IMG/VR virus record: IMGVR_UViG_3300033074_001484
Location: 32,001-96,000 of that record
Reading direction: 5' to 3' (one strand)
Source of the DNA: a virus
Taxonomy: Duplodnaviria > Caudoviricetes
Length of the DNA stretch: 64,000 nucleotides
Shown here: positions 6,946-32,801 of the stretch, piece by piece
How the letters are laid out: each line of letters begins with the position of its first letter
Position numbering within the stretch: the stretch's first letter is position 1
The notes under the pieces: generated by a model
The model's database searches: none
What the model was told of the DNA's origin: nothing
What the model saw: only the letters and a program-made list of their open reading frames with translations
Made by a program: the position numbers and the translations under genes

Positions 6946-7290
6946 TTAGCGGTCATTGCCTGTGTACGGTACACTAATAAAGTGAAAGCATCCAGTTTTC
7001 AACTTATAACCAATATATGCCTCTTTACCAGTTGGTGATTCTTTACAATCTTTTATAGCAAATACCTCTAATGAATGAGCATCTTTTGGTAACGGCAACA
7101 CACCGCTAACATCGTGTATAGGTAATATTTTTGCTTCCTTCATTGCTTCGATAAACCTATCCTCCGTCATTGCTTGTATCACCTCACCTTCTGTGTAGCT
7201 TCCGTCATTCTCAAACCTTCCAGTATCTGCGTAGCAATTGGATAGGTTTTTAAACAATTGTCGTAACTCTAATTCATTCATTCTATTCAA
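6946..7290 (-). CDS. Hypothetical protein starting within an attC-like loop
   Basis: Crosses core at 7108-7110 as Val (HDV|SG); stop is the TAA of the GTTA core at 6945. Confidence 0.65.
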   Translation of the reverse strand: MNRMNELELRQLFKNLSNCYADTGRFENDGSYTEGEVIQAMTEDRFIEAMKEAKILPIHDVSGVLPLPKDAHSLEVFAIKDCKESPTGKEAYIGYKLKTGCFHFISVPYTGNDR

Positions 7291-8068
7291 TTTTTGTAGT
7301 TAACAATCACAAAAATACATACCCATACCTGCAAACCGTTATGGACAATACACTTTGAACCACCTATCAAGGTGCCCATTTTTAAAGTCATTAATAAATG
7401 TTTCTGTGTCTTTTCCAAGTTTTGAAGCCCAATATTCAGCGGGTGCATGGTTACCTTTCATGTTACTATTATAAGGTGTTATCCAATCCCTAATCACGAG
7501 TAAATGAGTACTACCCATAACATCGTGTATAGCACATTGCTGTTCTTTTTTCAATTTACTATTTTCCATATTTTTAACCCACCGACTATAATCCTTGAAC
7601 CAAAAGATATTACCTGACCATAGGAACGCCGTTAATCCAGCATACCAATCGGCATCTTGTTGCCACCATATCGTAATAATATGCCAACAAGCGATAATGA
7701 TTAATCCTTGAATTAAACAACGCTGTATGACAGCAATTACATTCAACTTAACCTGTATTGCCGGTAACGCGGGTTTCGTGTCAATGTTTTTTGATTTCAT
7801 TTCGTTTTCATTTTCGGACAGAGTACCTGTATTCATCAAATCAATCATTCATGGCACATGCAAAAGAAAATCTCCTGCTACATGGTTACCTACACAGTAT
7901 CCATTTGTTCTGTAGACCCCACCTGATTCATCAATGTAAGCATATTTCACAACCTTTTCATTGGTCACATCCCACCCCCTATTCTTATTATATGAAGCAC
8001 GTGCCATATCACCCGCTAATGGGGCATGATCTTGTTGGTTCTCAGAAGTTTGTTTCTCGTTACTCATA

Positions 8069-11000
8069 CTATTGAGCATTTAACCCTTCAGCAATTCCTG
8101 CGTTGTATCCTGCTGTAAAACCTCTATCAAAAGTATCGGAAGCACTCTCCCCAGAACAGTTTTTTACTTGTTGTTGTGTAAAATATTGGACCAATTCATC
8201 ATATTGAGATTTGTTTAATTTTATTCTTGTTATGGACATTTCGCCAAATTCAAAGATATGATTTCGTCCTTCTTTGTAATGTTTCATATTGTTTTAATAC
8301 ATTTAGATATTTCTTAACGATGCCCGTGTGTGGACTACTTATAATCAGTCCAGTATGCGTTTAACTGTTACCGGTATTTCATCAAATGGGCTTTCCCACT
8401 CAAAGTCGTCAGAATCTATGAATAGTACCACTTTCTTTTCGTGGTCAATTTTTAGTACTTTGGCAATACACTTTTCACCACCGGGACCTTCATCATATTT
8501 GACCTTTGCTCCGACGAATAATTTGTCTACGGTAATCATTGGTCATTTTTTTCAAGTTGTCTATCCAATCCGATCACAAGTGCAATTGCTGCCTCCTTGC
8601 TTAATTTAATAATTGTCTCCACAACCTTACCTTTACGAACATTGTGGATAGCCCTCGGTGTCAGGTCATCCGACAGTACCGTAAACTTTATAATGTAGTT
8701 ATCATCCTGCAAGGCAGCGACAACTACCCGCCCGTTCTCAAATTTGAACTTATCGCCATTTGTGTATTCAATGTGTGTTATTCGTTTATCGTTCATAACC
8801 CAGATTTAATTTGCTCCTGTATGCAGTGTATTAGTCACAAGAGCTAAATGCCTCGTGCAACTTTTGAACTTTAGCCTTGCAGTATGAAATTGCCAAGTGT
8901 GCTGCTTCTTCGGCTGTAACACATTGTAGCATTTTCTCTTTGATATTCAGGTCATGACAATTCATTATCCAAATATTTGGGTAATGTATATGCCCCATAA
9001 TTATTAATATCCTGCAATCTCCAATTTTTGTTTCAAAAGTCGTTGGCACTTTTTCGGCATCATATTTGGAATACGATGTCACGTCATTCCAAGTAATACC
9101 GGCAGTCACCGGTACCTTTGCAAATTCAAGACATGACTGTTTAATTTCAGGTTTTAGTTCTTCCCGCATTTTTGGTATCTTTTAATAATAAATTGCATTT
9201 TAACACATCATCGACCGTTCGTTCATCACCGTTTTCGGCGATGATTTTATCCAGTTGCCAATGGTTACCCCTGTTAATTGCCTCTGCTGTAAGCAGAAAA
9301 AACGCTTTAAGGAACCCGTTGCAATAAACTTCAAGTTGGAAGGTGTTCCCCATCCAACTTTTGAAGTGTCCAATGTATCGGTAGTGTTTCATTATGAGAA
9401 CCATTTGTCAATAGTTTTCCAGAAATATTTCTCACGCTTATCTGCCCATTCTTTGCTAAATAACATCTGTAGGGCTAAGAACCCGATGCAAATTGCAAGT
9501 AGGGCAATTATGGCAATGAGTATGAAGGTTATAAATAACCACATCAGTGCTTCTATGGCAAACTCTGGAGAAATGTTCCGGATACCGTTCCGGGAAAACA
9601 AATCATGAGTAATCCCAAACATCACCCATTTGTACAGTATGTAGCATGTCACAGCTACTGCTGCGGTATGCCTATCCTTCCAGTTAGTTTCCATTTTGAC
9701 GAAGATTACAATATTTGCAGTTGCCTTTGTGTGTCAGGTATCCTTTAGAATAATGGACATCCATATATAGATATTCACAACTGTCAACTACAATTACATC
9801 GAATTCTCCAATATCATGGTTGACAGTGGGATATTTTGAAGGTTGTTGGCAGGCATTTAGTAAAAATGCGAGGACTACAATTGTGTATTTCATGATTGTT
9901 TATTTTGCGAATGGATGACTGGTAATGGTTCTTCTTTGCCGGTAAATCGGTTAAACGTAACATTACAATCAGGGCATTTATAATACGATAGACCATCGTA
10001 TTCTCCGCGTATTTCAATACCAATACACCGGCTCCACCGATAAGGGGGCGAGTAAAGTTCTTGTACCCGCTCTTTTAACTGTTCATCCGACATGTTGGCA
10101 TATAATGGATTACCTCCATTTCTTAGCTGTATGAAGGATTCAAGAATGGACCCACCGTCCCAATTGGCGTTACATGCAGGGCAATGGGTGGCATTATCAA
10201 GCATCGTTGAAGGTTTTTTGGTTGTTATAAAAGTTTACCAGCACATCACGTCCTGAGTAATCTTGTCTACTACAAGCATCCTCCAACACATTGTCCGGAC
10301 ACGTTCTACACACATCCAATACAACCATCATGTCTTTGTGACATAGGTCGGAATATAGCACGTACAAGTTTGTACCACGTATGGTTGAACAGCTTAATAG
10401 TTTGTTATAAATGGCAAGTGTCCCGGCAGGGTTATACTGGGCAAAATTTCCCAGTTCCACTAAAAATATCATGGCACCGGGGTTTCCATTTGACCATTCA
10501 AATATCTCTCTCATTTTGATTCATATTACGTTCAACCAGTTTGATTGCGGTTGTTGTGAACCCATTTTCTAAAATGGTCACGTTGGCAACGTAAGACTGT
10601 TGTGGTTTTTGCCGTGGAATTGTAAATGTGGCTAACCACAAGAAATAATTCCAGCGAACAAACTTTACGTCACAGTTCACGTTATCAATGTTCACATTCA
10701 CGGTCGATGAACTTTTCATGCCCCGTTTTTTTTGATGTGAGGGTTGGCATCGAATGCAGGTTCGCGGTCGATGAATTTCCGTTGACATTCAGCACAGTAG
10801 CCGGATAACGTCTCATATTCGACAGTTTCCGCTTTGCTCGTCAAGTTCAAATCCGACGTTTTGCAAGCGACGCAAATTCGTTTAGCATGTGCCTCGCTCA
10901 AACTTATCCCGTGGATCAATTTTGAAAAGTGATCAACGAAATTCTTGTGATTGTTGTTCATACCATTCCATTAAGTTGTCCGCTTTACGTTTTTCACTTC

Positions 11001-30997: not shown

Positions 30998-31873
30998 TGT
31001 TAAGTGTTTAGGCAACAAAGATACAACACGTGGGAAACTTAGCTACTACATTAAAACATATTTTTTTAGCGAATATGTTAAATATGAATATAAATGTTTC
31101 GGAACATTGTAACAGTTACTTTCCGAAATCAATATGTTAATTGGTTGATACACATAATAATATACGGTATTGTGTGTATGCAGTAGTTACCCACAAGCAC
31201 TACTTAGTACTTCAAAGTGAGTAAAAAAGAAAAAGCTATCAAGTGTATTATAATACCTCATTCCTTCATCCACAGCCTTTAGTTTGTCATTCTCAAAGCA
31301 ATGTTCGTTTATAAAGTAAAGTCCTCCATACTTATCAATTTCAATTCTTCCAGTATAAAGGCTTTTACTTCCGTGCCATTTAAACTCAACTTTAGTTCCT
31401 TGTTTTAATAGCTTTTTCTTTTCTTCTGTTAATTGGTTTTCTCCTTGTATCATAATTTTTAGTTTACTATACCGTGCCAGTGTATAACACGGTATAAAAT
31501 TCATTAAAACGAAATTTTATACCTGTCCGTTATATGCAATACTTTTCACTGAGTTCTTTACATACATCATACAGTTCCTCAGCACCTTCACCAGTCAAAT
31601 AATGGCTGTGTGCTACTTTTAATTTCCACCATTCATCATCAGGTAGCATTTCTTTTAATTTTACCAATAATCGGTCAGCCCTTATTTGACTTTGCCATGC
31701 ACCACCTTTGTTTCTAAATTCGTTCAAAGTACTGCATATAACAGCGTGTATATTCAATTGCTGCTTCTGTGCTTCTTTTTTAGTTTTATGTTTACTCATA
31801 ATTTTGTTTTTTTAATTAAGTTTATCAGTTATTTACGCAACTGAAATATACACACAACCATTATGCACAAGCA

Positions 31874-32368
31874 CTACCGAATCGCCTTTAAATAACATTC
31901 TCGTATTACTTTGGCATCCCAAAGAGCATTGTGTTTTTGACTTCCTTTAGTCATTCCTGCGTATTCCTCACGGCTTACATCAGGGTCAATTCCCTTAATC
32001 CTAAACAATGTACAAATGTCAAACGGTATGTAGTAGATTGCCTTCGGTATATTGAAAGCGTGTCCCCAAATTTGATTAAACAAAACCCAATCGTAAGAAA
32101 GGCAGTCAGACCAAATTTCTATATTCTCGTAAGGCTCAATAAATCCTTCAATCGCATTTCGTAGTTGTTCAGTGTTTATCGGGTTCGTGTTGTACAGGTT
32201 TGCTATTACATTATCCTTTAACCAATCGTCAATTTGGGTTTTGTCATAGTCGTTTAATTCACAGTAGAGTTCTCTACCATCTTCGGCAATCATTCCAATA
32301 CTAATCAATGTAGTACCCTGATGTAAGCCTGTAAATTCTGTGTCAAAAAAGATTTTCATTCTATTCAT
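31874..32368 (-). CDS. DEDDh 3'-5' exoribonuclease (Rv2179c-like), cassette-borne
   Basis: FFDTEFTGL...YDWVLF...HNALWDA. Confidence 0.8.
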
Positions 32369-32801
32369 ATTTTAAGTTAATAATCCGTGCCAGTGTACAA
32401 CAATGGCTATACGGTATTAAAACGACCGTTTAGCCCCATCGTTACCGGCAACGCTTCGACAACACATCATAAATGGACTTCAGTTTGATAGCAGCAAGCC
32501 GGTGCTGTTCATTTACCGCAGCCGAACTATCTAACACTTTTCGCCTATCTTTCTTAGGCGTGCTTTTGGAAAACTGCCAATCTTCAGCAAAGCTGCTCGG
32601 TGCGTTTCTAATAAGGCTTGCTGCTACCTTCAGTAACTCCGATAGGGCTATATCAACAGCACTGCCGGTAACAGGTGCATTGCTGCTATGTGGGCCGACG
32701 GAAGTTGTTTCAACTGTATTCATAAATTTTGCTTTTAGTTCTTAATTTGGGGCTGACGTGCAGGATTGCCCACACAGTCAGCAATGCTTCAACGTTAGCG
32801 G

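Follow-up and report, generated by a model that had tools for sequence, protein, structure and literature searches.

In a 64,000-nt stretch of a Caudoviricetes genome (Duplodnaviria; IMG/VR record IMGVR_UViG_3300033074_001484, positions 32,001 to 96,000), referred to here as the window, the minus strand between about 4.4 and 35.5 kb carries arrays in which two kinds of stem-bounded module alternate. Hairpin (H) modules extend from an AAC core to a GTT core, and the body (B) module that follows begins with this GTT and ends at the next AAC. Comparison among phages shows that H and B modules are exchanged independently of each other and that the breakpoints fall at the AAC and GTT cores. Some GTT cores lie inside genes, where they are read as a valine codon, and since one phase, frame 0, prevails at GTT, module exchange gives in-frame chimeras of N- and C-terminal gene halves. 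We propose that the array alternates exchangeable modules whose gene halves are shuffled in frame by attC-like, structure-specific recombination, a reading to which we give a probability of roughly 0.55. An earlier note on this DNA had suggested that the hairpins are portable start and N-terminal modules exchanged in frame at the core, and independent data from many genomes bear this out.

Alternating modules and their separate exchange

The H modules are imperfect hairpins of 42 to ~230 nt that follow one order: AAC, a G and 4–5 unpaired nucleotides, a 10–20-bp stem, a variable loop, 1–3 unpaired nucleotides ending in T, and GTT. Their spacer is asymmetric, mostly 3–6 nt on the AAC side and 0–3 nt on the GTT side, and a hairpin's own two cores have only TAAC/GTTA in common. 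The two ends of each B module pair with each other as a 14-bp stem, in which GTT-N5-CAGT-NN faces NN-ATTG-N5-AAC and position 11 is a G.T. For at least 11 consecutive pairs in the window, complementarity is perfect (9/9) between the nine letters that start with GTT and the nine that end in the next AAC. Some bodies hold a whole gene and others a C-terminal half without a start codon, for which the preceding hairpin loop gives the start codon and the N-terminal 16–60 residues. The reading frame then passes through the 3' arm of the hairpin, GTT (Val) and the 5' arm of the body, which is read as V-x-x-S or VVG(R/Q)SEQ; these peptides, and protein ends such as GNDR-stop, arise because both arms of the body stem are translated.

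A first hairpin scan with R boxes of at least 5 bp missed most sites, gave equal counts on both strands and was replaced by spacer-constrained scans; a plain 9-mer search for body stems, with a high background in AT-rich DNA (9–32 in shuffles), gave way to the 14-bp rule, which returns 395 stems versus 23 in shuffles. The hairpin family is strand specific, with 23 members on the gene strand of the window, 7 on the other strand and ~3.5 in shuffles. When the intervals between independently defined body stems are folded, 50 of 55 form a stem of at least 10 bp, compared with none of 55 shuffled intervals, and on the gene strand G follows AAC in 52/55 and T precedes GTT in 54/55. A G.T occurs in 41 of the 50 hairpin stems, which were sought at 10–20 bp with no bulges permitted. 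Body stems, of which a non-redundant set of 203 was assembled from the window and from related loci, covary as well: the search required positions 1–8 to pair, and at the unfixed positions 9, 12, 13 and 14 the pairs are Watson–Crick in 93–96%, at position 10 in 78%, with a sharp drop past position 14. Position 11 is a G.T in 183/203, with the G on the 5' arm, and in the window its polarity follows the gene strand every time.

This polarity lies on the transcribed sense strand in 104 of 113 classifiable bodies, as it would if the stems were RNA structures on the array transcript, serving in processing, stability or start-codon control through a G.U wobble, with DNA exchange as a by-product. A G.U pair is benign in RNA, and the position of the start codon and 5' leader, in the loop of the hairpin, fits the same idea. 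We nevertheless consider an RNA role improbable: bodies with a reversed open reading frame (ORF) keep the polarity of the array rather than that of their own mRNA (5601-6113, 19032-19546 and 15484-17575 in the window; 9/113 in relatives), a body stem can enclose as much as 2 kb of translated RNA, and neither the breakpoints at the cores nor the cassette-like, covarying body ends are explained by it.

When homologous proteins are split at the valine, N and C parts assort independently across contigs. Two related loci (L028 and L041) are 96% identical over the N-module, in a segment that starts just past AAC and the spacer and stops at the junction, with unrelated DNA on both sides, and another two (L042 and L075) have only a body in common, from GTT to AAC(G). 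The N-module of the window gene 21479 (ORFs keep the names given in the earlier note, which are the low, or stop, ends of minus-strand ORFs) occurs in six loci, comprising the window, L070 and four more contigs, where identity extends from AACG to GTT and is followed by five body classes; upstream, the neighbors are mutually unrelated, with AAC(G) alone in common. A search with the 21479 protein returned 73 proteins, of which 65 carry the N-module, followed by V in 60/65, and the C parts behind it fall into 58 clusters among 63. The window's own 21479 C-module is found behind at least six unrelated N-modules. Ends of BLAST alignments (high-scoring segment pairs) between loci are 6–7-fold enriched at the cores, and related wastewater phage contigs diverge from the window at AAC cores (20673, 18051) and at GTT cores (19546, 17571-17575).

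The same mixing is visible within the window, much as the earlier note had described it: 20902 and 21257 have a related N-terminus (direct repeats D13 and D18) ahead of unrelated bodies, and 18734, 21257 and 21479 carry a common VVG(R/Q)SEQ junction, here called class I, behind three unrelated N-termini. Among class-I genes across contigs, 14 pairs are alike throughout, 7 in the body only and 6 in the upstream hairpin only. Three further pairs (+1) have the hairpin and its downstream body in common, the sole two-module unit to be co-inherited, and no class-I contig pair shares a body with its downstream hairpin. The classical integron unit of body plus downstream hairpin, with 0 contig pairs, was thus rejected as the exchange unit. 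Three metagenome joints (18736>21572, 18083>18614 and 19626>20578) were considered as deletions and rejected, each being other genes or cassettes with only the conserved arms in common. In run X2, the summed contig depth of hairpin and junction bins at 18013-18867 and 20578-20748 was 10–80 times that of flanking bins; the conserved arms are therefore common to many other genomes in that sample.

The class-I junction is also, judging from its sequence, conserved at the nucleotide level. Its 21 nt are found exactly in 104 IMG/VR viral contigs, always in frame, in ORFs of ~80 codons with ~45 residues before and 33–37 after the junction, and in 23 genome contigs, mostly of Bacteroidota (genome bins and isolates). 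Protein-level selection alone would permit hundreds of synonymous encodings, yet the codons are invariant: a pattern allowing all codons for G-R-S-E-Q and requiring the complementary heptamer downstream matched 39 sites, of which 37 lie in contigs of the exact 21-nt set, one has a synonymous CGT and one a replacement. More than 100 contigs carry 21–40 nt of near-identical DNA at the junction, with a 15-nt downstream arm, and conservation drops to background immediately beyond the arms. CTACAAC stands 109–128 nt downstream of 70/106 class-I junctions; its background frequency is 0.055 per 300 nt.

Several lines of evidence concern translation across the core. In the family of the 21479 N-module, the ratio of nonsynonymous to synonymous polymorphism (pN/pS) is 0.28 in the ORF frame versus 0.73 and 0.84 in the other two, which indicates that the N-module is translated. 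The C-modules of the three window class-I genes (32–38 codons) contain no ATG, and the same is true of most class-I examples elsewhere. Two cultured phages carry core-crossing genes that their depositors annotated whole, gp032 of Cellulophaga phage phi19:3 and gp37 of Polaribacter phage P12002L. An AlphaFold2 model places a helix-loop-helix in the N-module, coil at residues 42–52 (the junction) and a small zinc-ribbon-like fold in the C-module (predicted template modeling score 0.30), so that the two modules are predicted to be loosely connected mini-domains with coil at the junction.

In a larger set of 82 core-crossing ORFs at non-class-I body stems of related loci, 59 cross in frame 0, 5 in frame 1 and 18 in frame 2. 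Frame 0 is thus the main phase, and a second phase exists. The frame-2 group is coherent, reading L-Y-T-[LV]-L or L-Y-T/P-L-L and including the annotated gp030 of phi19:3 (L134:4218-4433); the frame-2 N-terminus MQYEPLL precedes two different bodies in L024. An alternative ATG soon past the core occurs in about a quarter to a third of each frame group.

Such alternative starts, present in about a third of the frame-0 crossings of relatives, would suit the idea that the N-terminal extensions are annotation artefacts with translation starting downstream, and an ordinary paralogous family with common descent alone would account for the hairpin 3' arms, whose consensus is TATACAC, 3–4 nt, GTT. Given that consensus, the 11 core-crossing genes listed for the window are not independent cases. 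Both explanations are already largely refuted, and we regard them as very improbable. Modules that are shared have flanks of unrelated DNA, 58 unrelated C parts stand behind one N-module and the junction codons are invariant, all of which runs counter to descent alone; the class-I C-modules that lack an ATG and the constraint on the N-module speak against a downstream start.

Core-crossing genes and other features of the window

The earlier note had listed 11 ORFs as starting within a hairpin and reading the core GTT as Val, always in frame. All 11 lie on the minus strand and contain the junction pentapeptide quoted for them, and the valine codon is GTT in 11/11, with its G at 7110, 7521, 17942, 18847, 21126, 21355, 21595, 21980, 22299, 31742 and 32672. 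The start within a hairpin holds for seven of them: a significant upstream arm encloses the ATG of 32442, 31530, 21257, 20902, 18734 and 17754, and a weak one that of 6946. For 7339, 22111, 21777 and 21479 the claim fails in the window, where no upstream arm is detectable and only the core-side half-site or consensus is left. The word 'always' is right for the 11 listed ORFs and too strong beyond them, given the frame-1 and frame-2 crossings of relatives and an unlisted window ORF, 31187-31504, that would cross in +1. In all, 26 hairpin or body cores were examined in the window; 11 are crossed in frame 0, by ORFs of 63–169 aa, and 14 are crossed by no sizeable ORF because the gene start lies downstream of the core. 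Pfam and PHROGs searches with the 11 ORFs and 10 homologues gave no family above the curated cut-off and a few weak, sub-threshold Pfam matches.

The three class-I genes are laid out as follows, all coordinates for genes and hairpins here and in the next three paragraphs being on the minus strand unless stated otherwise. ORF 18734 (HDV/VG, 18723..19034) has a hairpin from AAC 19034 to GTT 18847 around ATG 18979, then a class-I body (VVGRSEQ...) that ends at AAC 18725-18723. The hairpin of ORF 21257 (FNV/VG, 21257..21470), from AAC 21470 to GTT 21355, has an 8-bp R box and 15-nt arms around ATG 21448 and also leads into a class-I body. In ORF 21479 (SCV/VG, 21468..21778), the N-module extends from AAC 21778 to GTT 21595 and the class-I body to AAC 21470-21468; the N-module stem is decayed in the window copy and intact in five relatives. 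The class-I body arm (18847-18827, 21355-21335, 21595-21575) has a 10-nt insertion relative to the other classes, containing GCGAAGC, or GCAAAGC where the residue is Gln; this is a GNA-type mini-hairpin motif whose stem the R/Q change leaves intact.

Four other genes have a hairpin around or overlapping their ATG. ORF 17754 (LGV/SI, 17753..18054) has one from AAC 18054 to GTT 17942 around ATG 18002, with the body from GTT 17942 to AAC 17753. In ORF 20902 (FAV/SG, 20901..21237), the 18-nt arms at 21237-21220 and 21145-21128 pair with one mismatch, ATG 21222 lies in the left arm and the body extends from GTT 21126 to AAC 20903-20901. ORF 31530 (HAV/IC, 31529..31858) has a hairpin with a 17-nt arm (p ~0.01) from an AAT-variant core near 31858 to GTT 31742, with ATG 31799 inside it and a body from GTT 31742 to AAC 31529. 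The hairpin of ORF 32442 (APV/TG, 32441..32796), with 19-nt arms, runs from AAC 32796 to GTT 32672 around ATG 32723, and the body from GTT 32672 to AAC 32441.

The remaining cases are partial. ORF 6946 (HDV/SG, 6945..7290) has a weak candidate hairpin from AAC 7340 to GTT 7110 and a body from GTT 7110 to AAC 6947-6945. ORF 7339 (HDV/MG, 7338..7848; Val is residue 108) has only a half-site ahead of its body, which runs from GTT 7521 to AAC 7340-7338. No upstream arm was found in the window for ORF 21777 (HGV/MW, 21776..22031; body GTT 21980 to AAC 21778-21776) or ORF 22111 (ADV/SS, 22100..22518; Val is residue 72; body GTT 22299 to AAC 22102-22100). The region ahead of ORF 21777, which lacks the hairpin arm, contains a T4-late-promoter-like motif, TATAAATA, at 22095-22060. 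The unlisted ORF 31187-31504 (31187..31531) has a short hairpin from AAC 31531 to GTT 31488; its first ATG lies in the loop of this 43-nt hairpin and would carry the frame across the core in +1, although translation could instead start at an internal Met 17 codons downstream.

Further hairpins make up the rest of the arrays. Between 4397 and 6947, non-coding hairpins (AAC>GTT 6947>6828, 6157>6113, 5603>5522, 5302>5217 and 4745>4661) alternate with whole-gene bodies, each closed by perfectly complementary ends of 9–14 nt. Between 17573 and 20903, hairpins 20903>20828, 20676>20594, 19601>19546, 18725>18640 and 17755>17575 separate bodies that hold methyltransferases, a restriction-modification pair and a reversed-ORF cassette, and between 32399 and 33943 lie 33943>33822, 33718>33655, 33369>33248 and 32443>32401. 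DNA-modification cargo comprises a Dam-type methylase, two N6_N4 methylases and an MT-A70 gene (4756-5184, 15577-17560, 18065-18601 and 19627-20394), and the body from GTT 17575 to AAC 15484 holds a reversed pair of a methylase and an MjaI-like restriction endonuclease. The cassette with a plus-strand (reversed) ORF is present twice, at 5601-6113 and 19032-19546; the first ~20 residues and the DNA upstream are 84–97% identical in DNA, the C-terminal two thirds differ and homology breaks off precisely at CTAACG on the downstream side.

By its content, the window appears to belong to a large Bacteroidota-type phage. Its GC content is ~35%, 111 of its 132 crude ORFs are on the minus strand, and 23 tRNA genes, the only tRNAs or other RNAs matched in Rfam, lie on the minus strand among small ORFs at 28659-46026; two of these matches are unusually long, at 105 and 159 nt. 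A 180,350-nt contig encodes the same protein as one in the window, and related DNA is present in wastewater metagenomes. Megablast of 10 kb of the window against GenBank phages gave no match, hence no close GenBank phage, and tblastn of one window protein gave remote matches only. Just upstream of the arrays is a plus-strand gene for a SegE-like GIY-YIG homing endonuclease (1372-1815), and after the tRNA region follows a long block of glycosyltransferase, epimerase and methyltransferase genes (53466-63689), including one for an 810-aa protein. An IS200/IS605-type element sits within the array region, with TnpB at 12987-14177 (minus) and the Y1 transposase TnpA at 14269-14682 (plus); 262 nt of its TnpB-side end are repeated with 100% identity 32 kb away, at 45013-45274, among the tRNA genes.

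Exchange at the two cores

The sites resemble the attC sites of integrons in being imperfect palindromes with an R'' that ends in AAC and an R' that starts with GTT, in their unpaired spacer between the R and L boxes, inner stem and variable loop or terminal structure, and, as in integron cassettes, in that a cassette's first letters are complementary to its own far core. The differences are also marked. Where attC has two or three extrahelical bases on the R''-L'' arm to set strand choice, the stems here have none and show a recurrent, fixed G.T mismatch instead; the R-box-like stem has 14 bp instead of 7, with an asymmetric spacer (~5 versus ~2 nt). In attC cassettes the top strand carries the ORF and attC follows at the 3' end of the gene, whereas here ORFs lie on the strand of bottom polarity and the hairpin is at the 5' end of the gene, where it may hold the start codon. 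A standard attC site has one crossover point, in R', and the breakpoints here fall at the two cores alike.

Clusters of attC sites without an integrase (CALINs) have been described in virulent phages, including P12002L, with methyltransferase cargo, and the integron integrase IntI1 recombined five of the six phage sites tested (Qi et al. 2023, PMC9892861). The arrays here likewise carry methyltransferases. The sole site on which IntI1 failed was P12002L_attC1 (PMC9892861), and window hairpin 32443>32401 matches its printed sequence in layout, has a nearly identical loop and belongs to the same hairpin family. Two published P12002L primer sequences had no exact match in the RefSeq record, so the link to P12002L_attC1 rests on the similarity of the printed sequence to 32443>32401.

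We suggest that the sites would act as attC does, by structure-specific recombination on folded single strands. In the attC bottom strand, the base after AAC is usually a G (Bouvier et al. 2009, PMC2727003), and the G directly after AAC is here on the gene strand; the gene strand therefore has bottom-strand polarity, and a classical crossover at AAC|G moves H together with the downstream B. The earlier note had cautioned that a classical integron crossover keeps loop and body together, and rightly so: H and B co-inheritance is what a crossover at AAC|G gives. N/C chimeras therefore need exchange at the other core, GTT. When the extrahelical bases of attC were deleted, top-strand recombination became ~50-fold higher and the crossover shifted to the R'' box (PMC2727003). 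As the stems here have no extrahelical bases, the other strand may also react, with a second crossover at GTT that splits genes in frame; a crossover of this kind would give exactly the N/C chimeras that are seen. On this reading, exchange at GTT would be site specific rather than driven by short homology. The broader proposition, that Bacteroidota phages carry a natural attC-related recombination system that uses both cores, with sites translated as linkers and N/C modules shuffled in a shared phase, is more tentative, and we would put it somewhat short of even odds.

Several observations weigh against attC-like recombination. The nearest published site, P12002L_attC1, was not recombined by IntI1, and the frame is not universal, as 23 of the 82 crossing ORFs of relatives are in frame 1 or 2. 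No tyrosine or serine recombinase was found among the 45 window ORFs of at least 140 aa, and two of four complete related phage genomes have no match to PF00589, PF00239 or PF01797. Genes for a Red-like exonuclease, SSB and annealing-protein-like products recur near many loci, and the class-I arms have a length (21–24 nt and 15 nt) that suffices for annealing-type recombination. Finally, some chimeras break ~12 nt upstream of GTT, at a common 8-nt stretch, GCATTGCG, with N-modules that end in ALR-IHD rather than ALR-QPP, and this looks like exchange by short homology.

These points bring in a serious rival, less likely as we judge it, in which no dedicated enzyme is needed: the class-specific arms of 14–24 nt at body ends would provide short homology for phage single-strand annealing or hairpin template switching, as PeSL elements of T4-type phages and the VENN junction of CdiA do, and modules with common arms would spread by recombining more often. 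The near-identical DNA at the class-I junction, the breakpoints inside the 8-nt stretch, the exonuclease, SSB and annealing-protein-like genes beside the loci and the lack of a recombinase in the searches of the window and the two complete relatives all favor it, and homologous exchange at PeSL elements is documented (PMC2839356, PMC4122927). What short homology cannot create is a joint without homology, and the 21479 N-module abuts at least five body classes that share GTT alone, with AAC(G) alone in common upstream. It also leaves unexplained why body ends are inverted repeats with perfect covariation, why hairpin stems covary and why the position-11 G.T is fixed with one polarity.

Two candidates for an enzyme of attC-like recombination were rejected. 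The TnpA of the IS200/IS605-type element is part of an ordinary insertion sequence (IS) and is absent from relatives (five large related records), and a tyrosine recombinase adjoining the phi19:3 array gave a weak XerD-like match only and no match to an integron-integrase model. In G003, the one of the two complete relatives that was scanned in full (172 kb), there are 5 strict stems only, and the absence of a recombinase from that genome therefore weighs little.

Relation to known systems and significance

A complete integron has an integron integrase (intI), a tyrosine recombinase, and an attI site beside its array, and the set of window ORFs searched contains no tyrosine recombinase. Hairpins of the IS200/IS605 or REP/RAYT type are short and subterminal and are served by a Y1 HUH transposase, and the only Y1 transposase of the window sits in the ordinary IS at 12987-14682. 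The PeSL elements of T4-type phages offer a closer comparison, as short structured motifs between small genes of hyperplastic regions that serve as exchange points. As described (Arbiol et al. 2010, PMC2839356; Comeau et al. 2014, PMC4122927), PeSL elements are intergenic promoter/terminator composites that are exchanged by homology and untranslated, leave genes unsplit and have neither AAC/GTT cores nor covarying ends. The hairpins here differ from PeSL elements in that they enclose up to ~190 nt, including coding sequence, and are translated.

Two systems outside site-specific recombination share the logic of the arrays. Polymorphic toxins swap their C-terminal domains at a junction motif, such as VENN in CdiA or PxxxxDPxGL in Rhs, and as in those toxins a short conserved peptide and DNA junction here receives many unrelated C-terminal modules in frame. 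Polymorphic toxins have a large constant N-terminal delivery region, a toxic C-terminal domain and a cognate immunity gene, whereas here both halves vary in proteins of 63–169 aa; the unit downstream is another hairpin and gene rather than an immunity gene, of which there is none; and the junction is the arm of a DNA stem whose partner lies past the stop codon. In eukaryotic exon shuffling, phase-compatible introns make module exchange productive, and the junctions here similarly share a phase, mostly phase 0 with a minority in another. Unlike exon shuffling, the exchange takes place by DNA-level recombination at the feet of hairpins in viruses of bacteria, with no introns or splicing.

The most direct parallel comes from engineering. 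Synthetic attC sites that encode peptide linkers have been built, and the shuffling of protein modules with them has been proposed (Nivina et al. 2020, PMC7439510). There, too, translation turns the recombination site into a linker that joins protein domains; those sites were engineered and tested with IntI1, whereas the system here is natural and widespread in Bacteroidota phages.

Arrays of attC-like sites in phages were already known, and translated sites that shuffle gene halves in a shared phase would be the new part. A literature search found no prior description of in-frame half-gene shuffling at such sites; earlier reports of integron-like phage sites concern a few attC predictions that flank whole genes only, and here the site is inside genes, whose two halves sort independently in hundreds of environmental phage genomes. 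If a dedicated mechanism operates, it would be a new route of combinatorial protein invention for viruses, would explain part of the ORFan load in the hyperplastic regions of phages and would provide a natural precedent for the attC-as-peptide-linker tool of synthetic biology. Phages would then have, at the level of DNA, their own version of exon shuffling, from which new small proteins would arise continually.

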